A stretch of 48,213 nucleotides of DNA from an uncultured Rhizobium sp. (GTDB lineage Bacteria > Pseudomonadota > Alphaproteobacteria > SHVZ01), in contig CAZZLX010000002.1 of NCBI GenBank assembly GCA_964655235.1, forward strand, positions 1-48,213, written 5' to 3'. This document shows positions 698 to 36,122 of this stretch, piece by piece. The translations under genes were made by a program, and so were the position numbers. The notes below the pieces were generated by a model. It was not told the origin of the DNA and made no database searches. It saw only the letters and a program-made list of their open reading frames with translations. Position 1 is the first letter of the stretch, and each line of letters starts with the position of its first letter.

Positions 698-2707
698 CTA
701 GGGCAGCTGAGGCGTTTCGCACCACCGGGTCCACATCGTTCTGAAGGCGCCTTCCAGCGCGCGTGCGTAGGCGGGACCGTCGCAGAGGATCGAGCCTGAG
801 ATCCGGCCGCGAAGAGCGGCTCTGAGCGAGGATCGCCATTCCTGATCCATGGCGACGGATACGGCGATCTCTTCGTACTGCTCGGTCGACCGTGCCACCA
901 GCCTCTCCAGCTGCAGCGGGACATGGAATGACTCGGTCATCCGCTGAACGAAGCTCCACCCCGACAGGGTAACGACCGGAACCCCCATCCACAGGGCATC
1001 GAAGCTGGCCGAGGCTCCTGTGAAGGGAAACGTGTCGAGGACTATGTCGAGATCGTTGTAGCGCTTCTGGTGATCGTAACGGCTGTCATCCGAGGTCATG
1101 AGATCGACACGGCTGAAGTCGCCTCCGGCAGCTTCGAACAGACGACGATAGCGAACCTGGATCTCGGCATTCTTGAATGCTGTCCGGTTCTTGAGCACCA
1201 GTCTCGCGGTAGGAAGCCGGGCGAGGATGCGCGACCAGGAGCGGATCACATCGGCATTGATGCGTGCCGGATTCACGAAGCAGCCGAGCGTGACGAATCC
1301 CTTGGATACCGACGGAGGCTCCACGATCGGCGGATCGGATGCCGGCGGCCGGAAGAAATGGAGGATGGGCAACCGCTGAAGCCCTTCCGAAAAACGCTCC
1401 TCGGTTGCGTCAGGATGAAGGATGGCGTCGGTCAGCCAGTGCGTCGCACGGAGCACCCCCGTCGTGGTACCGGCGAAGGCCGAAAGCTGGATCGGTGCTG
1501 CTCCGTGAGCGGCAAGGAACAAGCGGTTGTCGTCGAAGTGGGCGGCCGGGACGACCAGAATATCCACCTGATCCTGACGGATGGCTCGCGCCACCGCCGC
1601 ATCGTCGAGCCCTTGGACGTCGCGCCATAGATCGCTCTTCGACCGGTACCACGCCGTCTCGGCGTCTTCCGCGCGCACGTCGGAATAGACGTTCAAGCTG
1701 AACCGGTCGCTGTTTCTGTGATCGAAGGCAGCCTTCAGGTACCGAGCCACCGGGTGCCCGCGGAGATCCGAGGACGCGTAGCCGATGATCAGCCGTCGCG
1801 TCGCATCCTTGCTGTTGGGCGGCGCTGGCAGCGGGTGGATTTTTGCTTCGAAGCGGGCAGCGACCCGCCGATGTTCGGCAAACAAGCAGTCCGGCGTGAG
1901 GCGCGGCAGGTGCAGGAGGCACGTCAGATACGTCTTGGCCGCCGTGACGCTGCCAGGATCGCAGGCCATCGCGCAGCGCGCCGTCGCGGTCGCGAGATCC
2001 GCCAGGCTCTGGTCCTTCAGCGCACCGGCAAGACCATTGAGCGCCTCGGCCCGCTGCGGCTCGAGAGCGACGGCTCGCCGGTAAGAGATGAGGCCTTCCT
2101 CGACCTGACCGCCATTGACGAGGATGTGCGCCAAGTTCGAATGCAGCGACCCGAGGCTCGAGTCGAGCGAGAGGCCGAATTCGAAGGCGGCTCTGCCCTC
2201 GCCGAACCGCCCAAGGTCGGTCAGCGCGAGGCCGAAGTTGTTCCAGCTTTCGGCACTGGCGATATCGAGGACGAGCGCGCGTCGCGTGTAGGCGAGGCTG
2301 CGCCGGCGATCGGAAAGCTGCCGGATGAGCAGGCCCAGGTTCGTCCAGACGGCTGGGGTCTCGGGATCGAGTGCGAGAGCGACCCGATATGCCCGGCGGG
2401 CGCCACCTGTGTCCGACGCTGCCACCAGGTCGGCCAGCAACCCCCATATCTCGGCACGATCGGGACCGAGGACCAGCGCACGGCGTCCGTATTCCTCGAC
2501 CAGGCCGACCCGTCCCATAGATCGCGCGGCGATCGCTTGGTTGGCCCAGAGCTCGGCGCGGGCCGGCATCAGCGCGAGAGCGCCGGCGATCAGGCGCGAC
2601 GCCAGACCGTGATGTCCCGCCAGGCCTGCCTCGACGCCACGATGCAGAAGGATCTCGGACCTCTCCGCATCCGCGCGGGAAATGAATGCGGCACCTGATG
2701 GGCTCAC
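698..2707 (-). CDS. TPR-repeat protein fused to a GT41 (O-GlcNAc-transferase/FlmG-like) glycosyltransferase domain
   Basis: The N-terminal half has TPR-like A/L-rich repeats. The C-terminal half carries blocks shared by all six paralogs here: RRLIIGYASSDLRGHPV, VDILV, AAPIQLS, GFVTLGCFVNPARI, LDTFPFTGASASFDALWMGVPVVTL, and a W..RWC tail. GTG start at 2707 overlaps the upstream stop (GTGA). Confidence 0.85.
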   Translation of the reverse strand: MSPSGAAFISRADAERSEILLHRGVEAGLAGHHGLASRLIAGALALMPARAELWANQAIAARSMGRVGLVEEYGRRALVLGPDRAEIWGLLADLVAASDTGGARRAYRVALALDPETPAVWTNLGLLIRQLSDRRRSLAYTRRALVLDIASAESWNNFGLALTDLGRFGEGRAAFEFGLSLDSSLGSLHSNLAHILVNGGQVEEGLISYRRAVALEPQRAEALNGLAGALKDQSLADLATATARCAMACDPGSVTAAKTYLTCLLHLPRLTPDCLFAEHRRVAARFEAKIHPLPAPPNSKDATRRLIIGYASSDLRGHPVARYLKAAFDHRNSDRFSLNVYSDVRAEDAETAWYRSKSDLWRDVQGLDDAAVARAIRQDQVDILVVPAAHFDDNRLFLAAHGAAPIQLSAFAGTTTGVLRATHWLTDAILHPDATEERFSEGLQRLPILHFFRPPASDPPIVEPPSVSKGFVTLGCFVNPARINADVIRSWSRILARLPTARLVLKNRTAFKNAEIQVRYRRLFEAAGGDFSRVDLMTSDDSRYDHQKRYNDLDIVLDTFPFTGASASFDALWMGVPVVTLSGWSFVQRMTESFHVPLQLERLVARSTEQYEEIAVSVAMDQEWRSSLRAALRGRISGSILCDGPAYARALEGAFRTMWTRWCETPQLP

Positions 2708-3339
2708 GGCTGCTGCCAGAACAGCTGCTCACAGAGGGCCATGTATTCGTTCCGCAGCATGTTGCCGAGCGAGAACCAGCGGATATAGGAGCGGATCTCC
2801 TCGGCCGGCAGTTCCAGAATGCCGCGCCGGTAGAGAACCTCCTGGGCTTCCCAGAGCAGAAGGTTCGCGGACAGGAGGCCGAAATAGGCTTCGGCCCATG
2901 TCCTGGCTTCGGCACCGGCGCGGATCGTGGAGATCTTGCCGACATAGAGAGGTTGATCCGGCTCCGCCTGGGCCAAGGCCCGGCAGATCTCGGGGATCTC
3001 GGACCGGGTCAGGACGTCCGCTCCGCCGGCATCGGCGTTGCGGTGCCGCAGGTTCCATTCCTTGACGACGAGAATGGTTAGCCGATCGGCGAGCAGGCCG
3101 ACGGTATTCATCCCGACCGCCCGCGAGCCGTCGCGCGTGCGGACCGACACCGGCCGCCTGATCGCGGCGATGAGGGCCGTCTCGGCATCGCGCATACGCT
3201 CCAGGCGCGGCTTGAGGTCGCCCAGCAGGCGATCGAGCGGCTGGGCTTTGTCGCTGAGGCCGAGGCGCGCCGCGAAGTCGCGCGAATAGTCGGCGAGCGC
3301 GAGGAAGTAGCTCTGGTCAGGTACGGAGAATGAGATCAT
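2704..3339 (-). CDS. Hypothetical helical protein, possibly DUF4254-like
   Basis: I start it at the internal ATG 3339 (MISFSVPDQSY...). The longer ORF to 3504 would overlap the upstream oxidoreductase gene by about 190 nt. It contains LADRLTILVVKEW and LLLWEAQEVLYR, which resemble motifs in the small protein at 4499-4894. The family name is from memory only. Confidence 0.55.
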   Translation of the reverse strand: MISFSVPDQSYFLALADYSRDFAARLGLSDKAQPLDRLLGDLKPRLERMRDAETALIAAIRRPVSVRTRDGSRAVGMNTVGLLADRLTILVVKEWNLRHRNADAGGADVLTRSEIPEICRALAQAEPDQPLYVGKISTIRAGAEARTWAEAYFGLLSANLLLWEAQEVLYRRGILELPAEEIRSYIRWFSLGNMLRNEYMALCEQLFWQQP

Positions 3340-4399
3340 CGCACGTGAGGACGGACATGGTGGACGCGGAGGCCTCGATCTGCGCCATGAGATACTGGGT
3401 GCGCCATCCCTGTGCAAAGCCCGGCTCGCATTGGCCGCCGGCGCGGACCGCCGCGACGAAACGATCAAGGAGGCGCCGGAAGGGCAATGCCCGGCCGCCG
3501 GCATTGTCCTGGTGCCGATCCCTGGCGACGACCTCGGCCGCCCCGTCGGTCGGGACGCGGTAGAGCGCGAACCCGGTCATGATGCCGGGCTGCTCCTTGA
3601 CCAGGCGGTAGCTTCCCTTGGTGCAGAGGATCACCCATTCGTGGATGTCTTCGCCAGGAGCTGCATTGTCGAGCAGGACGCGAGCGGTTGTACCGTTGCG
3701 ATGGTGCAGCAGGATCTCCGCGCGATCCCATGCAGCCAAGGTGTCCGGGGGCGCGAAGGTCCGGGTGCGCAAGTTGTCGAGGGAGGCCTCGAGAGAGTGG
3801 ATCGGACCGAGCAACCATTCGGCGAGATGCGCAACGTGACTGGCGAAGCTGGTGACGACCCCCCCGAAGCGCCGACCGTCGGTCTTCCAGCTCCATATGT
3901 GATGCTTGTGCGCGTAGGACTCGGTTCGCCAAGCCAGTTCCGCCCGGATCGGCGTCCCGAGTTCTCCCGACACGAGTCCGTCACGGAGCGCCCGGAACGT
4001 GTCGAGCTCGGAGAAGCTGAAATTTACCGCCGTGGTCAGGTTTGCCGAGAGGCGGGCGAGAGCGGAGGCTTCGGCGAGGGTTGCCGCGATCGGCTTCTCG
4101 CTCACGACCGCGATGCCGCGCATCAGCGCCGATTGCACCGCCGCCGCCGTGACATCGGGCGGGAGGGCGATCGAGACGATGTCCGGCTCAAGCGCCAGCA
4201 ACTCCTCGACGTCGTCGGTCGCATGGGCGATGCCGTGCCGGGCGGCGGCATCGATGGCCTTGTCGCGACGGCGAGAGGCGACGCCGACGACCTCGACCCC
4301 CGGCTGGTCAAGCCAACCGGGAAGATGTACAGCGTATCCGAAACCGAGGCCTGCCACCGCGACACGAAGTGGCCGCCTGGGGCTTCCAGCAGATGACAT
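3317..4399 (-). CDS. Gfo/Idh/MocA family NAD(P)-dependent oxidoreductase
   Basis: N-terminal Rossmann signature LRVAVAGLGFGYAVHLPGW, followed by the EKP motif (VVSEKPIAATLAEA) typical of this family. Length is 360 aa. Confidence 0.8.
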   Translation of the reverse strand: MSSAGSPRRPLRVAVAGLGFGYAVHLPGWLDQPGVEVVGVASRRRDKAIDAAARHGIAHATDDVEELLALEPDIVSIALPPDVTAAAVQSALMRGIAVVSEKPIAATLAEASALARLSANLTTAVNFSFSELDTFRALRDGLVSGELGTPIRAELAWRTESYAHKHHIWSWKTDGRRFGGVVTSFASHVAHLAEWLLGPIHSLEASLDNLRTRTFAPPDTLAAWDRAEILLHHRNGTTARVLLDNAAPGEDIHEWVILCTKGSYRLVKEQPGIMTGFALYRVPTDGAAEVVARDRHQDNAGGRALPFRRLLDRFVAAVRAGGQCEPGFAQGWRTQYLMAQIEASASTMSVLTCDDLILRT

Positions 4400-4498
4400 A
4401 AGATTATTGTCCGTCAGAGCGCGCGGAAGGCTGGGAACGCTTCTTGAACATACCGTCGAGGAGGTGGTACCAGCAGACCGATATTCAGGGGGCCGGAA

Positions 4499-4894
4499 AT
4501 GTTAGTGCAAATCGAGATCTCCCCAGGAGAGCTCCTAGATCGCATTGTAATTCTAAAGATAAAGAAGCAAAGGCTGGTCGGAGCGGCGAAGCAGGCGAAT
4601 GTCGTTTCTGAACTGGAGCGCTTGCAGAAGATTCAATCTCGGACCGTTGAAATTGACGAAGTCATGAATCGTTTGTGTATTGAACTTGAGCGGATCAACG
4701 ACGAGATCTGGGTATTGACCGATCAGGTCTATGAGCGTCGGCGGCAGGGCATCTACGACGAGTCACTTGCGCGGCTTTGCATGCGGGCATTCGACCTCAA
4801 CCGGGAGCGCGCGGAAGTCAAACGGCGCATAGACGATCGGCTCGGTTCGAGCATTCTCGAAGAGAAGAACTACGGCGATATCGTGAATGCCTGA
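4499..4894 (+). CDS. Small helical protein, DUF6165-like
   Basis: MLVQIEISPGELLDRIVILKIKKQRL...ELERINDEIWVLTDQV...NRERAEVKRRIDDRLGSSILEEKNY matches my recollection of DUF6165 proteins. The gene and its flanks are visibly lower in G+C, about 43-57% per 60-nt line against about 67% elsewhere. Confidence 0.6.
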   Translation: MLVQIEISPGELLDRIVILKIKKQRLVGAAKQANVVSELERLQKIQSRTVEIDEVMNRLCIELERINDEIWVLTDQVYERRRQGIYDESLARLCMRAFDLNRERAEVKRRIDDRLGSSILEEKNYGDIVNA

Positions 4895-7645: not shown

Positions 7646-7705
7646 AGTCGGGGTTACGCTGAACGAAGCGGAGCCGGCGGCGATGTACGCGGCACTCCAG
7701 CACCG

Positions 7706-9265
7706 ATGAAGGGACAGGATGGCTCCTTCGCCTTGAGGCGGCGGCTCGCCGATGCCCCTTCGTCGCCGCAGGACCTCGTCGATCTCGGGCTTGCCGCCTT
7801 CAGGGGGCGCGAGGACGGCGCGGCCAGCTGGCTCGGGCGGGCCGCCGCGACCGTCGAGGACTCCGCGGTGCAGTTCGCCTATGCGGTCGCGACCGCCGAG
7901 AACCGTAACGCGCGGCGCGCGCTCAAACGGGCGCTGACGCTGGAGCCGACCTACTCGCCCGCCTGGGTCGAGCGAGCGTCACGGGATCCGGAGACTGCGG
8001 TCCGCAGTCTCCAGCGCGCGATGACCATCGACCCGACGGATATCGGCCTGGCCGTCAGCTTGGCGGCGGTCCTGCTCGACCGCCGCGAGGTTGCCGGAGC
8101 GCGCACCATCCTGGAGGCTGTTCTCGCCGCCGACCGCGAGCGGGCGTCGGCCTGGATCAATCGGGGCCGGGTCGCCGTCGAAGAGGACGACTGGCCTTAT
8201 GGTCTGGTTTGCGCACGACGCGCAGTCGTCCTTGCACCCGCCATGTTCGAAGGCTGGTTGAATATCGGGGGCATCTTCGAGGAGCGTGGCGACCGGGACG
8301 CGGCCGTCTCCGCCTCGGCACGGGCGGTCGTCATCGAGCCCCGCCACCCCAAGGCGCGATGGAACCGATGCCTGACCCGCCTCGGGCAAGGCGACTGGCG
8401 GAAGGGTTTTGCGGATTTCGACGTCCGCTTCCTGGTCCAGCAAGCCTATCCACACACACTCGCCCTGCCCCGCTGGGACGGCAGGACGCGTGCCGCGCAC
8501 CTGCTCGTCCACGACGAGATCGGCTATGGCGACGTCTTCAACTTCCTTCGCTATGTGCCGTTGGCGAGGGCGCGGGTGGATCGCCTGACGCTCGAGGTGA
8601 AGCCGGGCCTTCCCCGACTGCTCGAGGGATATCCCGGCATCGACCAAGTGATCGAGCGTGGCGCCGTTCCGCCGGTCGAGGCCGGCTATGACGCCTATCT
8701 TCCGATGGAGAGCCTGCCGGGACTTTTCGCGACGACGGTGGAAACAATTCCTCCGCCCACTCCCTACATCCGGCCGCCGGCGGCGTTGAAAGCGGCATGG
8801 GTGCGGCGGCTGGCGGACTGCCACCGTCCGCGCATCGGATTGTGCTGGGCGGGAAATCCCGGAAGCGGCTTCGATCAGAAGCGCTCGTGCCGGCTTTCCG
8901 ACCTGCAGCCCATTCTGGCGGTCGAGGGTCTGTCCTTCGTCTCGCTGCAGAAGGCGCCTGAGCCCATCCTCGCACCCGGCCTGCTCTCGGTCGGAGACCA
9001 GTTCGTGGACTTCGCCGATACGGCTGCCGCCATCTCAGAGCTCGACCTGGTGATTTCCGTCGAGACCTCGGTGGCGCATCTGGCCGGCGCGATGGGGCAG
9101 GCGCTCTGGATCCTGCTGGCGCCCAACCCCGCGTGGCGCTGGCTGCGTGATCGCGAGGATACACCCTGGTATCCGGGTGCCCGGCTCATACGCCGTAAGC
9201 CGGACGAGTCCTGGTCCGACGTGACGAGGAAAGTCGCCGACGACCTGCGAGCGCGCTTTGCTTGA
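7706..9265 (+). CDS. TPR-repeat protein fused to a GT9 (heptosyltransferase-like) domain
   Basis: N-terminal TPR-like repeats. The C-terminal part has GT9-type blocks shared with three paralogs: DEIGYGDVFNFLRYVP, IGLCWAGNP, FADTAAAISELDLVISVETSVAHLAGAMGQALW, and RWLRDREDTPWYPGARLIRR. Confidence 0.8.
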   Translation: MKGQDGSFALRRRLADAPSSPQDLVDLGLAAFRGREDGAASWLGRAAATVEDSAVQFAYAVATAENRNARRALKRALTLEPTYSPAWVERASRDPETAVRSLQRAMTIDPTDIGLAVSLAAVLLDRREVAGARTILEAVLAADRERASAWINRGRVAVEEDDWPYGLVCARRAVVLAPAMFEGWLNIGGIFEERGDRDAAVSASARAVVIEPRHPKARWNRCLTRLGQGDWRKGFADFDVRFLVQQAYPHTLALPRWDGRTRAAHLLVHDEIGYGDVFNFLRYVPLARARVDRLTLEVKPGLPRLLEGYPGIDQVIERGAVPPVEAGYDAYLPMESLPGLFATTVETIPPPTPYIRPPAALKAAWVRRLADCHRPRIGLCWAGNPGSGFDQKRSCRLSDLQPILAVEGLSFVSLQKAPEPILAPGLLSVGDQFVDFADTAAAISELDLVISVETSVAHLAGAMGQALWILLAPNPAWRWLRDREDTPWYPGARLIRRKPDESWSDVTRKVADDLRARFA

Positions 9266-20353: not shown

Positions 20354-20358
20354 GCGCC

Positions 20359-22787: not shown

Positions 22788-22791
22788 GGCC

Positions 22792-24188: not shown

Positions 24189-25375
24189 CAGGACTCGGTC
24201 TTAGCCGATCTGCCGGCGCGCGACCACTGCTCGTAGTCCCATGTGCGCCAGTTCTGCGCCGACGCCTTGACCTCGTCGAGGGTCGGCATCTCGTGGGGAT
24301 GGACGACGTGCGGTGCGACGATCTCCATGAAGCGCGGCTCGTCGATGCCGAGGAAGTCGAGGAAAAGATCGAGCGAGGGGGGCCTCCGGCCGTCGTACTT
24401 GGCGACCAGCTCCGCCCCCTTCTCGCGCGACATGCGGCCGTTGCGGATGTCGATCGACGCCAGGTGTGCCGTGCGGCCGAAACCGCGCTTCAGGAACTTG
24501 ATGTAGTCGCGCACGCCCTGCAGGAAGCACTCGATCTTCTCGTAGTCGTAGTCCGGCGGGATGCCCTCGACCTGATCGCCTTTCCAGTCGAGGTCGCGCT
24601 TGATGATGTCGACCTGCTTGCGGACGTCCCAGGGAATGTAGTTGCCGAGGAACATCTGGCGCACGCCTTTCTCCTTGAGGAGTGCCATCGGCGGCATGGC
24701 GTAGGGCTTGAGATCGCGGGCGGTGACCGGATAAGGCGAGATCGTGTCGTCGAGCATGCCCTGCATGTCCTCGGGATTGATCCCGAGATTGATGATGAGG
24801 TTGTAGCGCTCCTCGTCGTGCACCTCGATCTCGTCGTACTTGTAGAACGACGCGTATTCGGCCGAAGGCTCGCCCCAGATGATCAAGGGGATCGACTGCC
24901 AGGTGGAGACCCACATCGGGTAGGAGTAGATTCCCGTGTGGCAGTGCCAGCAGAAGTCGCCACGGCGGCGCAGGGATTCGAACATCAGCTTGCGCACCAC
25001 CTGCCAGTTCGGCGTGAAGTGGAGCACGTCGACGCCCAGCAGGCGGAAGGTCTTCAGGCTGTTCTCGATGACCGTCGGCCTGAGGAAGCCGTGGTCGAAG
25101 CGGACCACGAGCGGCTTCAGCTTCAGCTCCTTGATCACGTACCAGAGCGTATAGGTCGAGTCCTTGCCGCCCGAGAACGGCACGATGCAGTCGTAGTCGC
25201 CCTTGCCGCGCACGGAGTCGGCGATGTGCTGGAGTTCCTGGCCGCGCTCGCTCCAGTCGATGACTGTCTGCTTGACCTCGATCTGTCGGCAGACGGAGCA
25301 GACGCCCTCCTTGCTGAACGACAGGGATTCAGCCGTTTCCGGCATCACGCAACGGCTGCAGGAGTGAAGCGACAC
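24188..25375 (-). CDS. N-acetyl sugar amidotransferase (WbuX/WbpG/PseA family, PP-loop ATPase)
   Basis: Blocks seen: CSRCVMPET...F...GVCSVCRQ, the PP-loop DCIVPFSGGKDSTY, and FCWHCHTGIYSYPMW..IIWGE. These match my recollection of the TIGR03573-type family. Confidence 0.85.
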   Translation of the reverse strand: MSLHSCSRCVMPETAESLSFSKEGVCSVCRQIEVKQTVIDWSERGQELQHIADSVRGKGDYDCIVPFSGGKDSTYTLWYVIKELKLKPLVVRFDHGFLRPTVIENSLKTFRLLGVDVLHFTPNWQVVRKLMFESLRRRGDFCWHCHTGIYSYPMWVSTWQSIPLIIWGEPSAEYASFYKYDEIEVHDEERYNLIINLGINPEDMQGMLDDTISPYPVTARDLKPYAMPPMALLKEKGVRQMFLGNYIPWDVRKQVDIIKRDLDWKGDQVEGIPPDYDYEKIECFLQGVRDYIKFLKRGFGRTAHLASIDIRNGRMSREKGAELVAKYDGRRPPSLDLFLDFLGIDEPRFMEIVAPHVVHPHEMPTLDEVKASAQNWRTWDYEQWSRAGRSAKTES

Positions 25376-27720: not shown

Positions 27721-29024
27721 GTGCGGGGCCAGGCGCCGACCTCGGCCAAGGCGGAAAGCATGCCGTCGATGCGCCTGGACCAGGACCACGTCGACGCCAT
27801 GGCCGCCGCCGCATCCCGTCCCATCGCCCTCGCCTCCTCGCGCCGTGCGTAAAGCTGCTCCAGCGCGTCGACCACGTCCATCGGATCGGTTTCACCCCAT
27901 CCGACTTGTCCGGCAGCGGCGGGGTTGGTCGAGATAGCCGACTGGCGCTCGAGCGCCACGCAGGGAACCGACGCGATCAGGTCGAGGTGGCCGGTATTGG
28001 CTGAGAGGATCGTCGGTACGCCGCAGGCGAGCGTCTCCATCGCCGCGAGATTGGTGCCACCCTCCGCCCGGCTGACGAACACCGCGGCGTCGACGTCCCC
28101 CAGCCAGGAGGCCATCGCCTCGTTCGAGATCGCCGGCAGCAGCGCCATGCTGTCCAGCGGGACGCCGTTCCGTGCCAGCCAATCCGACACCGACTCCGGG
28201 CTGTCGGCGGCGACGGGCGCGCCCGTGCCATGGGGTGATTGCGCCAGATCGGCGGCGGCGCCGGGAAAAGGCGACGACCAGGCGGTGAGCAGGAGCGCGT
28301 CGGGATGACGCGCATGGAAGATGCGGAAGGCCGCGACCACGATGTCCTGGCCCTTCCTGAACTCGAGCTTGCCGCCCGAGAAGATCGTGAAGCGGTCGCC
28401 GAAGACGCCTCGGCGCGGCTGTGGCCTGAACAGGGTCGTGTCGACGCCCTGCGGGCAGACGGCGACGTGCTCGATGCCGAAGCTGCGCAGCACTTCGCCG
28501 TTCCACGCGGACCCGGCGAGCAAGAGGCGATAGCGGGCGGCTTGGGCCACGGAGTTTCCCGGACGGGTGTCTTCGAGAAAGGCCATGCCGATGTCCGGTG
28601 CACCGAAGACCCTGGCGCTCAGCTGACCGGCGCCGAGACCGTTGCCCAGCCCATGCAAGACCGGGAAGTCGAGATGAAGGTCGTCGCCGGCTGTCAGGTG
28701 CGGCGCTATCTCGCGTTGCGCCGCCAACGCCGGCGCGAGCGCGGGATCGGCCCTCGCTTCGTCGCCGAGGAGATCCTCGGTGTAGAGCGGAACCGGGACG
28801 GCGAGGCCTCGGCGCGTGAGGTCACGCGCTAGGTTCAGACCGAACACGCCCCATCCCGTGAAACTGGTGAAGGTCCAGCGGATGCCGAGACGCGGCAAGG
28901 GAGCGCCGGGCATGCTCAAGCTGCTCGCTTCGAGCCCCCGCTCCGGGACGTTGAAGCTCGGCAAAGGACGATCGGGCGCGGCATCGGGGACTTCCCAGGC
29001 AACGGCTTTTCGCTCAGCGCGCAC
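27717..29024 (-). CDS. GT4-family (group 1) glycosyltransferase
   Basis: Blocks seen: FTIFSGGKLEFRKGQDIVVAAF and VFVSRAEGGTNLAAMETLACGVPTILSANTGHLDLI (EX7E-like). The start is uncertain; ATG 28910 (MPGAPLPRLGIRWTFTSFTGWGVFGLNL) is an equally plausible shorter start. Confidence 0.65.
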   Translation of the reverse strand: MRAERKAVAWEVPDAAPDRPLPSFNVPERGLEASSLSMPGAPLPRLGIRWTFTSFTGWGVFGLNLARDLTRRGLAVPVPLYTEDLLGDEARADPALAPALAAQREIAPHLTAGDDLHLDFPVLHGLGNGLGAGQLSARVFGAPDIGMAFLEDTRPGNSVAQAARYRLLLAGSAWNGEVLRSFGIEHVAVCPQGVDTTLFRPQPRRGVFGDRFTIFSGGKLEFRKGQDIVVAAFRIFHARHPDALLLTAWSSPFPGAAADLAQSPHGTGAPVAADSPESVSDWLARNGVPLDSMALLPAISNEAMASWLGDVDAAVFVSRAEGGTNLAAMETLACGVPTILSANTGHLDLIASVPCVALERQSAISTNPAAAGQVGWGETDPMDVVDALEQLYARREEARAMGRDAAAAMASTWSWSRRIDGMLSALAEVGAWPRT

Positions 29025-29102: not shown

Positions 29103-30992
29103 TCAAAAGACCGGACGACGCAGGCGCCGTGAAGGTTCGGGAATCGGAAGGCCGTTCTCGGCGCAAAGGGCGCGGATCCTCTCCTCGTCGGCTCCTGACG
29201 CGTCGGGGTGCAGCACCACGCCACGGACGAGCTCGATCGGGTCGATCGGCGGGGCATGTGCCAGAAGGCCCGGGGTAGCGGTGGATTCGAAGTGGTTGGC
29301 CTCGAACAGCGGCTCGCGGCCCTCTGGCGTTTGCACGACCACCCGCACCTCGCGCTCGAAACTGTACATCGAATCCTTGTGCATGATGTCGTGCAATGGG
29401 CTGGTCGGAGATCGCGGGCTCATGCCGTCGACGTAGCAGACGGTGCCGATCGAGGCGTAGGCGGGGACCTGGGCGCGGAGCGTGCGATAGGTGGTGCGGA
29501 TCGCAACCGAGTCCGGCCGTGGTGCGTAGCGCCCCCACATCGCGTGGCTGTCGCCGGCGCCGAGGCGCCAGCAGCTGACGTAAGCCCCACGCGCCCGCCA
29601 CGGCGCGTCCTCGCGAATGTCCCGACGGCCTTGCGTGATGTCCGGCGACCCGTCGTCGAGCGGGTCGCCGAGGTCAGCGACCGGCGCCATGTACAGGCGG
29701 TTCTCGCGCAGCAGCCAGGCGAAATCATCGAAGCCGAGGTAACGCCAAAGCGCCGCATCGGGATCGTCGGGTGGGGAGAAGACGGGGGGCGCCGGCTCGG
29801 GCGGTGTGGCCGCAATCGGCCTCGCGCCCGTCGGAGGTGACGCCTGCGGCAGCACCATGCGGGTGACGTTGTTCCGCCAGATCTCGGCGTCTCGGACATA
29901 GCGGCGCGCGGTGTCGACCGAGCGATGCCGGGTCTGGTTCATGATCTGCATCAGATCGGCGCCGGCATTCGAGGCGGAGGTGGCTAGGCCGGCGCGAAGG
30001 CTGTGCCCGGCGTAGCGCTCCGGATTCAGGCCTGCGGTGACCGCTGCCGTCTTGACGGCGCGGGCGACACCTCGGTCGGAAAGCCGGAAAGGCCTCACCC
30101 TGCCGCCCCGAGTGATCTGGTGGAAGAGCGCGCCCGGTTCCTGCCCGCGTAGCGCAAGCCAGGCCTGGAGCGCCTGGACCGGGCAGAGCTTCGGGTCGGC
30201 CGAGCGGTGGATGCCGACCTCCTCCCCTGCCCCGGCCTGGTCCGTCTTCGAAAAGCGGATCAGCACCTTGAGGCCGCTGTCGGTGACGGTGAGGTCGGCT
30301 AGGTCCAGGGCGACGAGTTCGGAACGCCGCATTGCGCCACCGAAGCCGATCAGGAGAAGCGCCCGGTCGCGGGTGCCGAGAGGCGTGGACGGCAGAGTCC
30401 GCATCATGAGGGCCAGCTCGTCGGCGAGGACGGGTTGCGCCTGCATTGCGCGGGTCCCGACGGTGCGGGCAATGCCGTCCATTACGCGCGCAATGCGAGG
30501 ATCCTTGAGGTCGAGCACCAACCCGGCGGCGCGATGGGCGGCGACGATGGCCGAGACCCTCATGCGAATGGTCGCATATTTGAATTGTCGCTCGGGCAGG
30601 CCGGCCAGATACATGCCGACGAGCTGCGGGTCGCCCGACAGCGGCGCGATGCCCAGGCGGTCGCACCAGGCGGCATAGTCGGCAAAGGACGATCGGTAGG
30701 CCCGCTGGGTGTTGAAGGCGCGGGCCTGGGCGGAAAAGGCATCGGCCTGGAAGGCGTGCCGGGCGAGATCCGCCTCGCTCGCCGCGGGCGAGGTTTGGAT
30801 CGCTCGTACTGCCGGCAGGATCTCGTCCGAGGGAGCCGCCCCTATCGCCCCATACCGGTCGTCTTGCGGGCTCATCGAGAAAGCATACGGCTCGAGAGCG
30901 ATGAGCCCAACAAAATCCGTCCGATAGACATGATTATCGGACGGATAGAATTTCGGCCGGCGAGGCTCGCGCTGCTGGTTGGACGTGGTCAC
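29103..30992 (-). CDS. Tyrosine recombinase/integrase fused to a C-terminal DUF2971-like domain
   Basis: The N-terminal ~390 aa has a SAM-like core-binding region (NTQRAYRSSFADYAAWC). The catalytic residues are in GAMRRSEL (R), GHSLRAG (H-x-x-R), and HRSVDTARRYV (H...Y). The C-terminal ~230 aa has LWRYLGFDDFAWLLRENRLYMAPVADLGDPLD, AYVSCW....SHAMWGRYA, and YSFEREVRVV, matching remembered DUF2971 motifs. Confidence 0.8.
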   Translation of the reverse strand: MTTSNQQREPRRPKFYPSDNHVYRTDFVGLIALEPYAFSMSPQDDRYGAIGAAPSDEILPAVRAIQTSPAASEADLARHAFQADAFSAQARAFNTQRAYRSSFADYAAWCDRLGIAPLSGDPQLVGMYLAGLPERQFKYATIRMRVSAIVAAHRAAGLVLDLKDPRIARVMDGIARTVGTRAMQAQPVLADELALMMRTLPSTPLGTRDRALLLIGFGGAMRRSELVALDLADLTVTDSGLKVLIRFSKTDQAGAGEEVGIHRSADPKLCPVQALQAWLALRGQEPGALFHQITRGGRVRPFRLSDRGVARAVKTAAVTAGLNPERYAGHSLRAGLATSASNAGADLMQIMNQTRHRSVDTARRYVRDAEIWRNNVTRMVLPQASPPTGARPIAATPPEPAPPVFSPPDDPDAALWRYLGFDDFAWLLRENRLYMAPVADLGDPLDDGSPDITQGRRDIREDAPWRARGAYVSCWRLGAGDSHAMWGRYAPRPDSVAIRTTYRTLRAQVPAYASIGTVCYVDGMSPRSPTSPLHDIMHKDSMYSFEREVRVVVQTPEGREPLFEANHFESTATPGLLAHAPPIDPIELVRGVVLHPDASGADEERIRALCAENGLPIPEPSRRLRRPVF

Positions 30993-31066
30993 GGCCTCGG
31001 TTGCGATCCTGCCCGTCGTAAGGACGCTTTGCAGTCGCCATATGGTTTTCTGCTGTGCTCAAAGTG

Positions 31067-31086
31067 AACTTAAAACTAAGTTAAGT
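31067..31086. repeat. Overlapping short inverted repeats in the AT-rich divergent intergenic region between the integrase and the DUF1612-like gene
   Basis: AACTTA(31067-31072)-AAAC-TAAGTT(31077-31082), and ACTTAA(31068-31073)-N7-TTAAGT(31081-86). They lie 6-25 nt upstream of the ATG at 31092. Function is unknown; an operator or promoter role is possible. Confidence 0.4.
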
Positions 31087-31091
31087 GCAGA

Positions 31092-32213
31092 ATGCCGGAG
31101 CGACTTCCTCCCGATTGGCAGCTTCTCGTCGCCAGTTGCGCGGCTGATATCGAGCGCGCGGCAGCGTCGATCGGGCGCCTCGATCAGGCCGTATCGCGGA
31201 GTCGGATCGGCGATGCCTGGAGCCGAAGAAGCGTTTATCCGGCGACGGTCGCCTGCCTCGCGGCCGATGGGCATTCCTTTGAAATAGAAAGGCTTTTTGC
31301 CTTGGCCGGCGGATTGCCGGTCAATCGTATAAGGGATTTCGGGGCCGACAATCGGGCGCTCGGAACCTGGCGAGGAATCCAGAAATGGACGGGCGCGGCG
31401 CCCTCGGAGAGGGTGTTCGCGGACGCCGAGTCCGGCTCCGAAGACATCGAGGATGCGCTCGCGGGCTTTCATGCGACGGTCGGGGCTCCGGCCCTCCTCG
31501 GCGCGGTCATGGGCTTCCGGTCTTGGCTGGAGGCAGGCCAGCCGGCGAGTGCGGCCATGACCGCCTTGCCCTCGTTCCTGGCCGTCCGGGGCCTCACCGG
31601 TTCCCCCATTCCCTGGCTGGCCGGAGGCCTGAGGCGCGCCGCCGGGATCGTCGGCAGCTATCCGGCGAAGGCCTGGACCGTCCGGGCCGTGCAGGAGCTG
31701 GCCGAGACGGCGGCCGCCGGCATGCGCGACCTTGAGGCCCTGACCGGGCTCTGGCGATCCTGGCATGCGAAGCTTGGTCCCCGGAGGCGGACCTCGCGGC
31801 TGCCGGAGGTCGTCGATCTCCTCGTCGCCCATCCAGTCCAGTCGCCCCGGCAGGTTTCCCGGGTGCTGGGAACCAGCCTGAGAGGTGCTTCGAAGCTGCT
31901 CGACGAGCTCAAGGAGCTGGGCATCGTCGTGTCCCCTATGTCGCGTCGCTCCTGGCGGGTCGTTATCGCGGCCGATCTGGCATCGCTCCAGGATCAGGTT
32001 CACCAGGTGCCGCGGCCGTCCGGCGAGAGGCCTCATTCTGTGCCTGCCCGCCTGCTTCCGGCGGCGCCCAAGACCGGGGCGCCCTTGGCGCTTTCTGACG
32101 CCAAGATCTCATCCCTCCGGTCCGTGATCTCGGAGAGCGACGACGTCATCCGGCGAGTCACCCAACGCCTGTCGGAGATGAGGCCCCGCATCCCGCGCCG
32201 AGACGTATCTTAG
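31092..32213 (+). CDS. Plasmid-associated hypothetical protein with a probable C-terminal winged-helix/HTH (DUF1612 / RHE_PE00001-like)
   Basis: It is 373 aa. The C-terminal segment LPEVVDLLVAHPVQSPRQVSRVLGTSLRGASKLLDELKELGIVV looks like an HTH. The length and the context next to an integrase and parA fit the rhizobial-plasmid DUF1612 family as I remember it. The assignment is tentative. Confidence 0.4.
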   Translation: MPERLPPDWQLLVASCAADIERAAASIGRLDQAVSRSRIGDAWSRRSVYPATVACLAADGHSFEIERLFALAGGLPVNRIRDFGADNRALGTWRGIQKWTGAAPSERVFADAESGSEDIEDALAGFHATVGAPALLGAVMGFRSWLEAGQPASAAMTALPSFLAVRGLTGSPIPWLAGGLRRAAGIVGSYPAKAWTVRAVQELAETAAAGMRDLEALTGLWRSWHAKLGPRRRTSRLPEVVDLLVAHPVQSPRQVSRVLGTSLRGASKLLDELKELGIVVSPMSRRSWRVVIAADLASLQDQVHQVPRPSGERPHSVPARLLPAAPKTGAPLALSDAKISSLRSVISESDDVIRRVTQRLSEMRPRIPRRDVS

Positions 32214-32235
32214 TCGCACAGTCTATCAGTCGCCC

Positions 32236-32476
32236 ATGCGAACAACGTGCTGCTAGTCAAGCGATTGATTTTCATCATAAAGTCTGTGCACTTATGCGAA
32301 TGGATCGTTGGATCGCTTTACGCGCATTGAGATAATGGACGCCTGAAGCGAACTATGAAATTTTGCGCATGGGTGCGCGGGGCGATTGGGGCGATGATTG
32401 GTTCATGCGAACGATCGCTTCATGCTGCTGATGCCCCGCGTCCATTCGACTGAACTCTTGAGGCGACTGTTCGCAT
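32236..32476. repeat. Repeated ATGCGAA / GATCGCTT motifs upstream of parA (candidate partition site or par operator)
   Basis: ATGCGAA occurs at 32236-32242, 32294-32300 and 32405-32411. The inverted copy TTCGCAT at 32470-32476 overlaps the parA ATG. GATCGCTT occurs at 32311-32318 and 32413-32420. The region is a 261-nt non-coding, lower-G+C gap. Confidence 0.45.
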
Positions 32477-33152
32477 GAGCGATCGAATTCCGGTGATCAC
32501 CGTCGCGGCGACCAAGGGCGGGGTCGGCAAGACCACCCTCACCCTCAATCTGGCGGCGGCGGCCGAGGCGGCGGGCCACGGTCCGGCGGCCATGATCGAC
32601 ATGGACCCGCAGGGCAGCCTCAGCCATCTCTACAATCGCCGAAAGGCCGAAAGCGGGCCGGTGATGCTGGGTTGCGAGAACGGCGACCTGTCCGGCGCCA
32701 TCGGTGCGGCCATGGCGTCGGGGATCAAGCTGGTCGTCATCGACACGCCGCCGGCCTTCCTCGACGTCACCCGGGCCTGCGTGTCGGCAGCCGATCTGGT
32801 CGTGGTTCCGGCACGGCCGTCGCCGCTCGACCTCGAGGCCGTCGGGCCCACCATCGACATCGTCGAGGAAGCGGGAAAGCCGCTTGTGCTCGTCGTCAAC
32901 GCCGCCAAGGCGCGCACGCGTCTCAAGGGCGATGCGGCCCGGGTCCTGGCCCAGCACGGCAAGGTCGCCCCGGTCGACCTGATCGATCGCATCATCTACT
33001 CGGAGGCGATGATCGAGGGCCTCTCGGCCTCGGAATACGATCCGGGCGGGCAGGCGACCAAGGAGATTCGCCAGCTTTACGACTACATCGACCGTCAGCT
33101 GCGCCGTGCCCGCGGCGCACCGGCCGGCAACCGCACCGGAGAGACCGCATGA
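32475..33152 (+). CDS. parA: ParA-family partition ATPase (small type Ib-like)
   Basis: Deviant Walker A VAATKGGVGKTTLTLNLA. Also MIDMDPQGS, VVIDTPP, and DLVVVPARPSPLDL. Confidence 0.9.
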   Translation: MSDRIPVITVAATKGGVGKTTLTLNLAAAAEAAGHGPAAMIDMDPQGSLSHLYNRRKAESGPVMLGCENGDLSGAIGAAMASGIKLVVIDTPPAFLDVTRACVSAADLVVVPARPSPLDLEAVGPTIDIVEEAGKPLVLVVNAAKARTRLKGDAARVLAQHGKVAPVDLIDRIIYSEAMIEGLSASEYDPGGQATKEIRQLYDYIDRQLRRARGAPAGNRTGETA

Positions 33153-33592
33153 GTCCGAAATCCCGTCCGCAGATGGACGCCTCGATCATCCGCCGTCCGG
33201 GCCAGGCCGCGCCGATCCAGGCGCCCAGCTATGCGCGGGTCGAGCCGGTTCCCGAGCCAGCTGCCCTCGCGCCGGCCGCGCCCCCGGCCCCACCGTCCGT
33301 CCCGGTTCCCGCTCCGGTGCAGACACCGATGCCCGAGCCCGCTCCCGCGGCGGCCTCGCGACCGCCTGAAGTGCCGCCCCCCCGCATCGAGGGAAAGTCG
33401 TCCGACAACATGCCCTGGCTCGGCGGGCGTCCGTGGACGCGCAAGCTCGGCATCCGGATGGACGAGGATCGCGTGCGGCGCATCAAGATCGTCGCAGCCG
33501 CACGCGGTGCGACGATGGAAGAACTGCTGGTCGAAGCCATCGACCAATACATGGAGAGGCACTGGCCGGAGGTCTCGCGGGGACTGCGTTAG
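33149..33592 (+). CDS. Ribbon-helix-helix partition/centromere-binding protein (ParG/ParB-like) with a Pro/Ala-rich linker
   Basis: ATG 33149 overlaps the parA TGA as ATGA. The C-terminal KLGIRMDEDRVRRIKIVAAARGATMEELLVEAIDQYMERH is a typical RHH fold signature. The N-terminal half is a low-complexity P/A tract. Confidence 0.65.
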   Translation: MSPKSRPQMDASIIRRPGQAAPIQAPSYARVEPVPEPAALAPAAPPAPPSVPVPAPVQTPMPEPAPAAASRPPEVPPPRIEGKSSDNMPWLGGRPWTRKLGIRMDEDRVRRIKIVAAARGATMEELLVEAIDQYMERHWPEVSRGLR

Positions 33593-33657
33593 CGCCCGAG
33601 CGCCTTGCAAGGCGAACCGGCGGTGGCTATCTCAGGGCCTCACCACGGAAGGCGTTC

Positions 33658-34112: not shown

Positions 34113-36122
34113 GTGAGCTCGCGACGGGACGAGGCTCTCGCGCTACTCCACCGCGGTCATGAGGCGCATCGGCGAGGGGATCTGCCGCGGGCTTCGTCCG
34201 ACTATCGACGCGCCACGGCCCTGCTGCCTGACCTCGCCGACGGCCCCTATCTCCTGGCGATCGCGCAGCTCCAGGGCGGAGAGGCAGGGCAGGCCGCCAT
34301 TCGCCTCAAGGCGCTGCTACACCGTTTCCCGCCCTCGGCGGCGATCGCCGTCAATCTCGGCCTCGCCCATACTTCTACGGGCGAAGCTGCCGCCGCCGCG
34401 GCCGCCTTCCGCCGCGCAGCCGCTCTCGATCCGGGAGACGCCACCTCATGGATCGAGCTCGGCAATCAATGTGCCCGAGCCGCGGACTACGCCGGCGCAT
34501 GTCTCCTGTTCGGTCGAGCCGTCGGCCTGGATCCGATGGATGCCGTCGCGCTCGGGAATCTCGGGAGCGCGATGGCTGCCCGCGGCAGCCCGTCGGCGGG
34601 AGGCTGGCTTCGCCGATCATTGGCGTCGTCGCCCGCATCCGCACGGACCTGGATCAATGCAGGACATGGTCTGCGCGAGTGCCGCGAGTGGCTGGCCGCG
34701 GGGCGCGCCTACGACCGGGCGGCAACGGTAGAGCCGTCGAACGCCACCGCGCAGTCCGAAGCGCTCCACGCCCGGCTCCAGGCGGCCGATTGGAACGATC
34801 TGCCGCGACGGATCACGGCGCTTGGCGCGGCGCTCGGAAGGGGCGGGGCGGCACCGCCCTTTCATCTGCTCGCGCTCGACCTTCCGCCCTCTCTCAAGCG
34901 CGCCAACGCCGAGCGCTGGAGCGCGCAGTACTCTGCCGGCCGTATTTCGTTACGGCCCTCGATGCCGGGAGGGCGCCTGCGTCTCGGCTACATCGGGGGT
35001 GACTTCCGCCGTCATGCCGTCGCCTACGAGATGATCGGTCTTTTCGAGGCGCACGACCGGCAGCGCGTCGATCTCTTCGCCTACAGCTGGTCCCCTGATG
35101 ACGGCAGCGATATCCGCGCGCGCCTCGAGCAGGTTTTCGGTGGGATCGTCGATCTCGGACCGATGAGCGACGTAGCGGCGGCGGCGCGCATCGCCGCGGA
35201 TGCCGTCGATGTCCTCATCGACCTTTCCGGACATACATATGGCGCGCGGCCGGGAATCCTCGCCCGACGGCCGGCGCCGGTGCAGGTCAACTACTTCGGC
35301 TTTCCGGGCGTGACCGGCGCGACCTATCACGATTACGTCCTCGCAGATGCGGTCGTCGCGCCGGAAGTCAGCGACGAAAGCTACCGCGAGGCGATCGTGC
35401 GCCTGCCGGGATGCTATTGGCCTCACGATCCCCGCCTGCGGGCCGGGGCAACACCGGATCGCGCCCGCCTCGGGTTGCCGCCCGAGGCGATCGTCCTCGT
35501 CTGCTTCAATCAAGTCTACAAGATCCAGCCGACGAGCTTCGCAATGTGGATGAAGATCATGCGGTCGGTACAGGACTCGGTGCTCTGGCTTCTGGATCAC
35601 GGGCCTGTGGCGCGCGGGAATCTGCAGCTTCAGGCGGCGCGGCAGGGGATCGACGTGAAGCGCCTCGTCTTCGCACCGCCGGCCGCACATGACGAACATC
35701 TGTCCAGGATCGGCGCCGCCGATCTTGCGATAGATACACTGCCATACAACGCTCACACCACCGCATCCGACGCGCTTTCCATCGGATGTCCGATGGCAAC
35801 CTGGATCGGCACGGATTTCGCCGGGCGCGTATGCGCCAGCATGCTCGCGGATCTGGGCTTCGACGACTTGATCGCAGAAGACGCCGATGCCTATGCCGAT
35901 CTCGTGACTGGCATCGCCCGCGATCGCGCGCGCCTCGACGCCGTTCGCGAGCGGTTGCGGGCGCGGCTGAAGGCCGGGCCCCTATTCGCCATGGACAGGC
36001 TTGCGCGCTCGGTCGAGGCCGCGGCGACGGAAATGACGCAACGCCACCGTGCCGGGCTTGCGGCAGAAGGCTTTTATATATCGACGGACGGTACTACGAG
36101 GAGGAGTCGACGAAGCGCCTGA
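34113..36122 (+). CDS. TPR-repeat protein fused to a GT41 (OGT/FlmG-like) domain, divergent member
   Basis: GTG start. Blocks seen: GRLRLGYIGGDFRRHAVAYE, VDVLIDLSGHTYGAR, PAPVQVNYFGFPG, VLVCFNQVYKI, and IDTLPYNAHTTASDALSIGCPMATW. The last motif differs from the ALWMGVPV consensus of the other five. Confidence 0.8.
   Translation: MSSRRDEALALLHRGHEAHRRGDLPRASSDYRRATALLPDLADGPYLLAIAQLQGGEAGQAAIRLKALLHRFPPSAAIAVNLGLAHTSTGEAAAAAAAFRRAAALDPGDATSWIELGNQCARAADYAGACLLFGRAVGLDPMDAVALGNLGSAMAARGSPSAGGWLRRSLASSPASARTWINAGHGLRECREWLAAGRAYDRAATVEPSNATAQSEALHARLQAADWNDLPRRITALGAALGRGGAAPPFHLLALDLPPSLKRANAERWSAQYSAGRISLRPSMPGGRLRLGYIGGDFRRHAVAYEMIGLFEAHDRQRVDLFAYSWSPDDGSDIRARLEQVFGGIVDLGPMSDVAAAARIAADAVDVLIDLSGHTYGARPGILARRPAPVQVNYFGFPGVTGATYHDYVLADAVVAPEVSDESYREAIVRLPGCYWPHDPRLRAGATPDRARLGLPPEAIVLVCFNQVYKIQPTSFAMWMKIMRSVQDSVLWLLDHGPVARGNLQLQAARQGIDVKRLVFAPPAAHDEHLSRIGAADLAIDTLPYNAHTTASDALSIGCPMATWIGTDFAGRVCASMLADLGFDDLIAEDADAYADLVTGIARDRARLDAVRERLRARLKAGPLFAMDRLARSVEAAATEMTQRHRAGLAAEGFYISTDGTTRRSRRSA

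Follow-up and report, generated by a model that had tools for sequence, protein, structure and literature searches.

Six diverged TPR-GT41 paralogs in a putative protein glycosylation island on a plasmid-like contig of an uncultured alphaproteobacterium

The contig CAZZLX010000002.1 (assembly GCA_964655235.1), analysed here over its whole assembled length of 48 kb (48,213 nucleotides, hereafter the window), carries six genes predicted to encode glycosyltransferases of family GT41, each fused to an N-terminal array of tetratricopeptide repeats (TPR). By its gene content, the window appears to be part of a plasmid-like replicon of an uncultured alphaproteobacterium, with a GC content of 63-70% and a cargo that, according to a Pfam scan of every product, is nearly all soluble glycosylation machinery. 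In total, 18 genes in the window are predicted or likely transferase genes, and 11 of their products are TPR-fused. The same genes in the same order are found on related contigs, which reach up to 110-118 kb and are referred to by locus numbers: an Alphaproteobacteria metagenome-assembled genome (MAG; GCA_044223515.1, contig 110 kb; L005, L033 and L035), GCA_964482145.1 (L001), GCA_016178915.1 (L004 and L034), the JGI metagenome 3300015615 (L030 and L036), an ENA assembly (L031) and a further related contig (L037).

The six TPR-GT41 genes and their neighbours

Genes were modelled from third-position GC content and open reading frame (ORF) structure, and all predicted products were scanned against Pfam (Table 1). 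The initial annotation of this DNA had read six ORFs as TPR-GT41 fusions, and this reading is borne out, since all of them match Glyco_transf_41 (PF13844) with 86 to 265 bits, where the gathering cut-off is 25 bits, and N-terminal TPR matches are present in 6/6 copies. The TPR arm spans about 190-365 aa and differs in length among the copies. In the PDB sequence comparison, which covered copies 1, 4, 5 and 6, the best matches were SPINDLY, T. terrenum OGT or human OGT/XcOGT, with E values from 1e-71 to 1e-89; copies 2 and 3 were placed by collinear alignment with these four. On these grounds, five copies are predicted to be SPINDLY-like and copy 6 (34113-36122) to be OGT/XcOGT-like. The motif blocks quoted in the initial annotation are present in all six proteins, which align collinearly, and the ALSIGCPM variant that it had singled out in copy 6 is real and explained by membership of the OGT/XcOGT clade. 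Its picture of six enzymes side by side fits copies 2-4, which are contiguous, and fails for the other three, which lie 6-9 kb from the nearest copy. The chosen starts agree with gene calls in related contigs, where the orthologs of copies 2, 3, 5 and 6 have 562, 612, 741 and 669 aa. A comparison of ten TPR-transferases with NCBIfam yielded no equivalog and only sub-threshold TPR matches.

Beyond these six, other glycosyltransferase families contribute at least five more TPR fusions to the locus. Four of them (TPR519, TPR_GT9a, TPR661 and TPR_GT9b) share the invariant motifs WAGNP and DTPWYP..RL.RQ in an alignment, and two of the four match Pfam Glyco_transf_9 above the cut-off. An AlphaFold2 (AF2) model of the C-terminal domain of TPR661, of moderate confidence (predicted local distance difference test, pLDDT, 69; predicted template-modelling score, pTM, 0.73), was matched by Foldseek to E. 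coli WaaC/WaaF (E 1e-8 to 2e-7, template-modelling scores of 0.52-0.61) and, with an E value of about 1e-4, to TibC, which is a protein heptosyltransferase. Sequence-profile searches of the PDB gave no match to the GT9-like domain up to an E value of 10, and TPR proteins only when the full-length profile was used. From the model, these four TPR fusions are predicted to be GT9-like, with a GT-B fold closest to that of WaaC/WaaF. The TPR_GT9b ORF is open to the window end and may run past the contig end. In L031, the TPR_GT9a ortholog (14653-15668) is represented by two short ORFs of 228 and 112 aa, owing either to pseudogenisation there or to an assembly error.

A paralog of the secretion ATPase SecA, here called SecA2, lies upstream of two of the GT9-like genes and is itself preceded by a DUF6165 gene. 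Its Walker A, Walker B, arginine-finger region and C-terminal zinc-finger motifs are all intact. The SecA2 clade comprises eight sequence clusters that are 61-100% identical, and other alphaproteobacterial SecAs are at most 51% identical to it. In 5/5 related lineages with readable context, SecA2 is found between DUF6165 and the TPR-transferases. On one strand, the genes DUF6165-SecA2-TPR519-TPR_GT9a-GT41_2 are separated by gaps of 84 and 60 nt and then overlap by 8 and 4 nt, which gives them the appearance of an operon with GT41_2 as its last gene. Apparent co-transcription of SecA2 with the transferases extends to all relatives studied. The DUF6165 protein, whose position is kept in relatives, is modelled by AF2 (pLDDT 79) as a long, bare helical hairpin and has no detectable relatedness to the 211-aa conserved unknown protein encoded nearby. 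The replicon encodes RepA_C, ParA and a recombinase, and the Pfam scan of the window products revealed no housekeeping genes, so that SecA2 is most likely accessory. Its identification with the housekeeping SecA of the host was considered and is disfavoured by this RepA_C/ParA context and by the sharp identity gap to other SecAs.

The right-hand part of the window combines copy 6 with two divergently oriented Maf genes and with genes for a cytidine monophosphate (CMP)-nonulosonic acid. The Maf pair is kept in L035, L036 and L037, where the nonulosonic-acid genes are also collinear. Maf enzymes are the classical nonulosonic-acid transferases of flagellin, and their long form binds flagellin via a C-terminal TPR domain. 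The Maf, nonulosonic-acid, TPR + GT9-like, plasmid and SecA genes, all of them missed by the initial annotation, carry most of the functional information of the locus.

Table 1. Features of the window, with positions, strands and supporting evidence.
Feature	Position	Strand	Evidence
RepA_C protein of plasmid replication, cut at its 5' end by the contig end	10..693	+	Pfam 116 bits
GT41_1: TPR + GT41, SPINDLY-like	698..2707	-	Pfam 86 bits; SPINDLY 3e-86; dN/dS 0.14
Conserved unknown protein (~211 aa) and GFO/IDH/MocA oxidoreductase, between GT41_1 and DUF6165	2704..4399	-	Pfam
DUF6165 protein upstream of SecA2	4499..4894	+	Pfam 36 bits (cut-off 27)
SecA paralog (SecA2), 888 aa	4979..7645	+	Pfam SecA domains; dN/dS 0.07
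TPR519: TPR + GT9-like glycosyltransferase	7706..9265	+	Pfam TPR; shared GNP...DTPWYP motifs
TPR_GT9a: TPR + GT9-like glycosyltransferase	9258..10802	+	Pfam Glyco_transf_9 24.7 bits + TPR
GT41_2: TPR + GT41, SPINDLY-like, shortest TPR arm	10799..12487	+	Pfam 118 bits; dN/dS 0.07
GT41_3: TPR + GT41, SPINDLY-like	12427..14262	-	Pfam 125 bits; orthologs 50-81% identical
GT41_4: TPR + GT41, SPINDLY/TtOGT-like	14385..16424	+	Pfam 132 bits; 5djs 1.4e-71, SPINDLY 4e-71; dN/dS 0.18
Sel1-repeat protein with signal peptide	16443..17156	+	Pfam Sel1 76 bits; N-terminal hydrophobic segment ending AMA
TPR661: TPR + GT9-like glycosyltransferase	17181..19166	+	alignment; AF2 model of C-terminal domain
unk396 and 629-aa protein with GT4-like C-terminus, soluble, GT-B-like	19163..22248	+	Pfam Glyco_trans_1_4 26.9 bits (629-aa protein); weak match (unk396)
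GNAT acetyltransferase, HisF-like, HisH-like and 395-aa proteins	22245..25375	-	Pfam; orthologs 66-97% identical
GT41_5: TPR + GT41, SPINDLY-like, longest TPR arm	25495..27720	-	Pfam 149 bits; SPINDLY 5.5e-89; dN/dS 0.19
GT4-family glycosyltransferase	27717..29024	-	Pfam GT4-conflict / Glycos_transf_1; kept in L035
Plasmid maintenance block: tyrosine recombinase, HTH_13 protein, ParA, ribbon-helix-helix protein	29103..33592		Pfam
GT41_6: TPR + GT41, OGT/XcOGT clade, adjoins two Maf genes	34113..36122	+	Pfam 265 bits; human OGT 1.3e-87, XcOGT 3.8e-84
Two Maf glycosyltransferases, 676 and 681 aa, divergently oriented	36094..40314		Pfam Maf_flag10_N + MptE-like, 98-114 bits
CMP-nonulosonic acid genes: HAD phosphatase, cytidylyltransferase, GFO/IDH/MocA oxidoreductase, SDR, NeuB synthase, pyruvyl transferase	40320..45493	+	Pfam
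Glyco_trans_1_2 glycosyltransferase	45490..46872	-	Pfam 73 bits
TPR_GT9b: TPR + GT9-like glycosyltransferase	46857..48116	-	Pfam Glyco_transf_9 29.4 bits + TPR

The remaining genes include further soluble transferases, namely the GT4-like 629-aa protein and three other GT-B enzymes. The orthologs of unk396 and of the 629-aa protein, which has a helical N-terminus, are 59-87% identical, and the GT4 gene next to GT41_5 overlaps it by 4 nt and is apparently translationally coupled to it. Beside the HisF-like and HisH-like genes, the 395-aa protein shows a weak match to PP-loop ATPases. This trio (22792-25375, minus strand) is arranged like Campylobacter pseA-hisH-hisF and Pseudomonas wbpG and is presumably an acetamidino-forming sugar-modification module; the same trio is present near Maf genes in the metagenomic loci L038, L053, L055, L056 and L072.

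Among all window products, predicted membrane or export segments are confined to the signal peptide of the Sel1-repeat protein and to one small ORF. The Sel1 protein, with a predicted cleavage after AMA, is encoded amid an otherwise cytoplasmic transferase operon, at a position kept in all relatives. Known components of the flagellar motor include periplasmic Sel1-repeat proteins, for instance MotX of Vibrio. The small ORF (33655-34104, plus strand), located between the partition genes and GT41_6, contains a hydrophobic stretch that is read as two transmembrane helices, and its place in L035 and L036 is taken by similarly sized ORFs (134 and 147 aa).

As for the replicon, two separate plasmid-type modules are present, namely RepA_C and the recombinase/HTH_13/ParA/ribbon-helix-helix block, and each is kept beside the same transferase genes in relatives. 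In particular, RepA_C adjoins the GT41_1 ortholog in L004 and L031, the maintenance block is kept upstream of GT41_6 in L035, L036 and L037, and the pair of genes between GT41_1 and DUF6165 is kept in L001, L005, L030 and L031. The replicon must be larger than 48 kb, since genes are cut at both contig ends. A megablast search of PLSDB plasmids with window positions 1-20000 retrieved no related plasmid, the sole match being 240 bp of secA.

Divergence, selection and active sites of the GT41 copies

In pairwise comparison, the six full-length paralogs are 24-37% identical, with 24-40% for the catalytic half alone and 20-30% for the TPR half. These values are somewhat lower than the 40-50% estimated by eye in the initial annotation, whose conclusion of old paralogs holds, as the orthologs found in other MAGs are 42-92% identical, as opposed to 24-37% between paralogs. 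Copies 1-4 each have one positional ortholog per lineage, in three to five related contigs, with identities spanning this 42-92% range. Copies 5 and 6 occupy the same positions in L035, the closest relative, where they are 84% and 83% identical (the GT41_5 ortholog has 741 aa), and copy 6 orthologs are found beside the Maf pair in L035, L036 and L037. The orthologs of copy 3 are 81, 63, 62, 60 and 50% identical, after which identity drops to 46% or less, and proteins of unrelated genomes (40-46%) are closer to copy 3 than its neighbours in the window. For copy 6, the corresponding series is 83, 69, 66, 66 and 51-56%, followed by 42% or less. A recent tandem amplification is thus ruled out by the low paralog identity together with the separate orthologs of copies 1-4 in several contigs.

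Each copy also appears to be maintained by selection. With the nearest ortholog at hand as reference, the six copies have dN/dS values of 0.07-0.19 and no internal stops, which rules out decaying pseudogenes, copies 1 and 4 included. The motifs of the catalytic site vary from paralog to paralog, and each orthologous group has its own fixed set. The copies are therefore likely to be specialised and non-redundant, as purifying selection acts on each of them and the paralog-specific motifs are kept across orthologs. This agrees with the premise of non-redundancy behind the earlier proposal that six such enzymes serve several clients or decorate one client stepwise. Copies 2 and 3 are convergent and their 3' ends overlap by 61 nt (12427-12487); an overlap of the same length is found in the gene calls of L001, L004, L030 and L031, and it holds even though protein identity drops to 50-60%. 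GT41_2 orthologs are 59-92% identical, and the gene has a start/stop overlap of 4 nt with the upstream gene.

The set is not confined to six. Further TPR-GT41 genes are present on related replicons, with four in L033 (at the end of the L005 contig), two in L031 (1-3634, upstream of RepA) and one in L034, so the set of TPR-transferases of the family is larger than the window shows. Related replicons also carry a GT61 enzyme and TPR proteins of 569 and 477 aa fused to a different domain; the loci of these extra genes are L033 as a whole, L031 1-3634, L034 9392-13028 and L004 1425-2858. Among loci fetched by similarity to copy 3, tandem GT41 arrays comprise four genes in a Rhodospirillaceae MAG, four in a deltaproteobacterial MAG, six in Desulfatirhabdium and nine in Sedimentisphaerales. 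Six paralogs on one contig are therefore an instance of a recurring, unstudied pattern.

The differences between copies reach into the active site. In GT41_1, an Arg takes the place of the essential nucleotide-binding Lys (K842 of human OGT, K665 of SPINDLY) in the motif NPARI, as it does in 3/3 orthologs, whereas the Lys is kept in copies 2-6. GT41_4 is devoid of the Asp/His pair (D491/H495 of SPINDLY, H558 of human OGT) and has instead a VST-FALAST motif that is found in 6/6 lineages (the window and five orthologs), whereas the active-site His is present in copies 1, 2, 3, 5 and 6. The H495A and H495F variants of SPINDLY are inactive. Copies 1 and 4 may thus be adaptor-like pseudoenzymes or follow an altered mechanism, rather than being standard enzymes. 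The gatekeeper position (Y744 of SPINDLY, C917 of OGT), which has been proposed to limit donor size (PMC9715652), is occupied by Phe in copies 1-4 and by Tyr in copy 6, and copy 5 is without a counterpart of it. At the position of SPINDLY Ser496, copies 1, 2, 3 and 5 have Pro, and the motif is absent from copy 4. No genes for guanosine diphosphate (GDP)-fucose synthesis were found in the window by the Pfam scan. Since neither Ser496 nor Tyr744 is kept and GDP-fucose genes are lacking, the SPINDLY-clade copies are not filed as O-fucosyltransferases.

Acceptor of the transferases and role of the SecA paralog

To our knowledge, every characterised GT41 enzyme (OGT, SPINDLY, HMW1C/NGT) acts on protein acceptors. 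Cytoplasmic protein glycosylation is also favoured over polysaccharide assembly by the near absence of membrane or export-type genes among the products. Indeed, no flippase, polymerase, ABC exporter, priming transferase or oligosaccharyltransferase was found among all scanned window products, and a chain-length regulator, a Wza exporter and a ligase are likewise missing from the 48 kb and from the fetched syntenic segments.

Which protein is modified is suggested by the genomic company that these enzyme classes keep elsewhere. Flagellin genes were searched for by tblastn, with FliC of E. coli and FljK of Caulobacter as queries, which were validated by strong matches in other loci. In L011, four GT41 genes in a row are flanked by one flagellin gene on either side; in L020 (Candidatus Contendobacter), two TPR-GT41 genes are directly upstream of fliC-flaG-fliD, with fleQ nearby (Pfam-confirmed); and L010 and L014 have a flagellin gene within 10 kb. 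Overall, flagellin is near GT41 in 4/25 loci; by our rough estimate, about 1-3% of random 20-kb stretches would contain a flagellin gene. The Maf scan with Maf2 alone as query found nothing, and an alignment-based scan gave 80 metagenomic loci with Maf relatives, of which 27 have flagellin, 18 have GT41 and 7 have both. In L066, a stretch of 8.5 kb encodes one Maf, one GT41 and one TPR-GT9-like enzyme together with two flagellins. Relatives of the TPR + GT9-like enzymes adjoin flagellin genes in L066, and in L046 and L047 the distance to a flagellin gene is no more than about 11 kb. Judged from gene neighbourhoods, all three enzyme classes of the window thus appear to be recurrently linked to flagellin at the family level. 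In line with this, the TPR domains of FlmG and Maf-1 bind flagellin, and GT41 enzymes have been catalogued in enterobacterial flagellin glycosylation islands (PMC4875605). Two Ser/Thr-rich secreted proteins in L034 were considered as clients and discarded, as they are neither kept across the family nor linked to the cluster.

Collectively, we hold with moderate confidence that the window represents an expanded, plasmid-borne island for cytoplasmic protein O-glycosylation, with flagellin as its most likely client. In such a scheme, the TPR arm of each GT41 enzyme would dock the protein acceptor and the GT-B catalytic domain would transfer one kind of sugar, so that the diverged GT-B domains could add different sugars or act at different sites. 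The GT41 enzymes would work beside the four TPR + GT9-like enzymes, the other GT-B enzymes and the two Mafs, which would add a nonulosonic acid made in cis, and flagellin, whose gene would lie in another part of the genome, would receive sugars at several sites, or a complex glycan in successive steps, before it is exported. The protein nature of the acceptor, flagellin as that acceptor, the division of labour and the donor identity are what we infer. Several points weigh against this reading. No flagellin or flagellar genes were found in the 48-kb window or in about 150 kb from L001-L005 and L030-L037. The link to flagellin is one of family rather than of orthology, because the flagellin-linked GT41 genes are 25-47% identical to the window copies. 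The nonulosonic-acid pathway is partial, as the genes identified in the window include none for a dehydratase, an aminotransferase or a hydrolysing 2-epimerase. Moreover, a model of flagellin only leaves SecA2 unexplained, since flagellin export runs via the flagellar type III apparatus and not via Sec.

SecA2 is the centre of the main alternative, a serious if less likely one, in which the left-hand module (DUF6165, SecA2, the two TPR-GT9-like genes, GT41_1 to GT41_4, Sel1, TPR661 and the two GT-B genes) would act in the cytoplasm to glycosylate one or more surface or secreted proteins that depend on Sec, and SecA2 would drive their export through SecYEG, much as in the SecA2-only and accessory-Sec systems of Gram-positives. 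The small separate clade of SecA2 (61-100% identity within, at most 51% outside), its same position in all 5 related lineages examined, its close same-strand association with the TPR-transferases (a 60-nt gap, then 8- and 4-nt overlaps) and its intact ATPase and zinc-finger motifs with a dN/dS of 0.07 all speak for this alternative, and the plasmid genes and missing housekeeping genes of the replicon make it unlikely to be the only SecA of the cell. Both transferase families are also precedented on Sec-exported adhesins, as HMW1C belongs to GT41 (PMC3012730) and the GT9-like model matches TibC. On the other hand, no SecY2, Asp1-3 or adjacent serine-rich substrate was found in the window or the syntenic loci, nor any other Ser/Thr-rich or repetitive substrate in the window or beside SecA2 in relatives; and none of the other GT41 or Maf loci examined has SecA2, which confines the link to this plasmid family. 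Export by SecA2 could coexist with flagellin glycosylation by the Maf/GT41_6 module. That the left half constitutes an undescribed Gram-negative SecA2-type glycoprotein export system, with DUF6165 as partner and copies 4 and 1 as non-catalytic or altered adaptors, is a proposal that we regard as unlikely. A literature search on SecA2 in Proteobacteria or on TPR + GT9 flagellin enzymes found nothing relevant.

The remaining explanations concern the acceptor itself. The TPR-transferases might build or decorate a capsule, O-antigen or exopolysaccharide, with the TPRs serving oligomerisation or scaffolding and the export genes located elsewhere, as the pyruvyl transferase, GT4 and GT9-like enzymes and nonulosonic-acid pathway of the window are known from surface-polysaccharide loci too, the GT9-like fold has its nearest solved structures in lipopolysaccharide heptosyltransferases, and TPR-bearing capsule polymerases are known (PMC5974469). 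This is nevertheless improbable, given that the priming transferase, flippase, polymerase, chain-length regulator, ABC/Wza exporter and ligase are lacking both here and in the syntenic segments, that the characterised GT41 and Maf enzymes all use protein acceptors, and that GT41 arrays elsewhere adjoin flagellin genes. A very improbable explanation is intracellular regulatory glycosylation, in which the GT41 enzymes would act on many cytoplasmic proteins in the manner of eukaryotic OGT and SPINDLY and regulate physiology, as has been described for Yersinia HmwC; the strong similarity to OGT and SPINDLY and the report of a bacterial OGT-like regulator (PMC11329713) fit with it, whereas the context of an accessory plasmid with sugar-biosynthesis genes, Maf and many transferases speaks for structural surface glycosylation, and the window has no gene for an O-glycan hydrolase (OGA-like).

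How O-glycosyltransferases choose protein sites is poorly understood, and six GT41 enzymes (with more in relatives) that show fixed differences in TPR arms and active sites are suited to domain-swap and specificity studies of the kind performed with FlmG and Maf. If the clients are flagellins, the locus would represent an unusually large plasmid-borne toolkit for flagellin glycosylation, and its horizontal transfer could change surface antigenicity or phage sensitivity. If SecA2 serves a glycosylated product, SecA2-type export of cytoplasmically glycosylated proteins would extend to Gram-negatives, for which no literature report was found. Of all the features, the conserved SecA paralog and the active sites of copies 1 and 4, which are atypical but kept in the orthologs, most deserve to be followed up.

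Relation to known glycosylation systems

Among characterised GT41 enzymes, Arabidopsis SPINDLY (7y4i, 8dtf) and TtOGT (5djs) are aligned by copies 1, 4 and 5 over the last TPRs and the whole catalytic domain (E 1e-71 to 1e-89), with the RLRxGYxS, FNNxAK and ALWMGVP blocks in common and a bulky Phe at the SPINDLY Tyr744 position in copies 1-4. The window copies depart from SPINDLY in having Pro for Ser496 (copies 1, 2, 3 and 5), Arg for Lys665 (copy 1), no Asp491/His495 (copy 4) or no aromatic gatekeeper (copy 5), as well as in their shorter TPR arms and in the lack of GDP-fucose synthesis genes in the window. Human OGT (7yeh) and XcOGT (2vsn) are the counterparts of copy 6 (E 1e-84 to 1e-87), in which the lysine of FNQxYK, the equivalent of His901 and the nucleotide-binding motif HTT are all retained. 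Copy 6 differs in that it is devoid of an intervening domain, has a Tyr at the Cys917 gatekeeper and is encoded on a plasmid beside Maf genes.

Caulobacter FlmG shares with the window copies the N-terminal TPR and C-terminal GT-B arrangement, and nonulosonic-acid genes are near the copies of the window. FlmG is a flagellin pseudaminyl/legionaminyl transferase in which flagellin is bound by the TPR domain and the choice of donor is made by the GT-B domain. However, FlmG is one enzyme for six flagellins, as opposed to the many enzymes found here, and no flagellin gene is present in cis in the window. FlmG was compared by description, as the papers give TPR + GT-B and do not use the term GT41.

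Soluble GT41 and GT9-type enzymes that glycosylate protein in the cytoplasm before Sec export, namely HMW1C/NGT and TibC/Aah, provide a further parallel. TibC and Aah represent GT9-type cytoplasmic glycosylation of Sec-exported adhesins. In contrast to the window copies, HMW1C is without TPRs and is an N-glycosyltransferase. The accessory Sec system of Gram-positives (SecA2/SecY2 with GtfA/B) is similar in that a second SecA is encoded among transferases, and differs in that no substrate, SecY2 or Asp proteins are encoded here and the host is a Gram-negative alphaproteobacterium.

The closest parallel at the level of the locus is provided by the flagellin glycosylation islands of Campylobacter, Shewanella, Aeromonas and Enterobacteriaceae (surveyed for the latter in PMC4875605), with which the window shares Maf, NeuB/CMP-sugar genes, an acetamidino-type module and GT41. 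The Maf and nucleotide-sugar genes that mark such islands are present, whereas physical linkage to flagellin or flagellar genes is not seen. Known islands have 1-3 transferases, are chromosomal and adjoin flagellin genes; unlike them, the window island is predicted to be plasmid-borne, has 18 predicted or likely transferases and a SecA paralog, and contains no flagellin gene within 48 kb. The island is best seen as a variant of flagellin glycosylation islands and of bacterial GT41 enzymes rather than as a new category.

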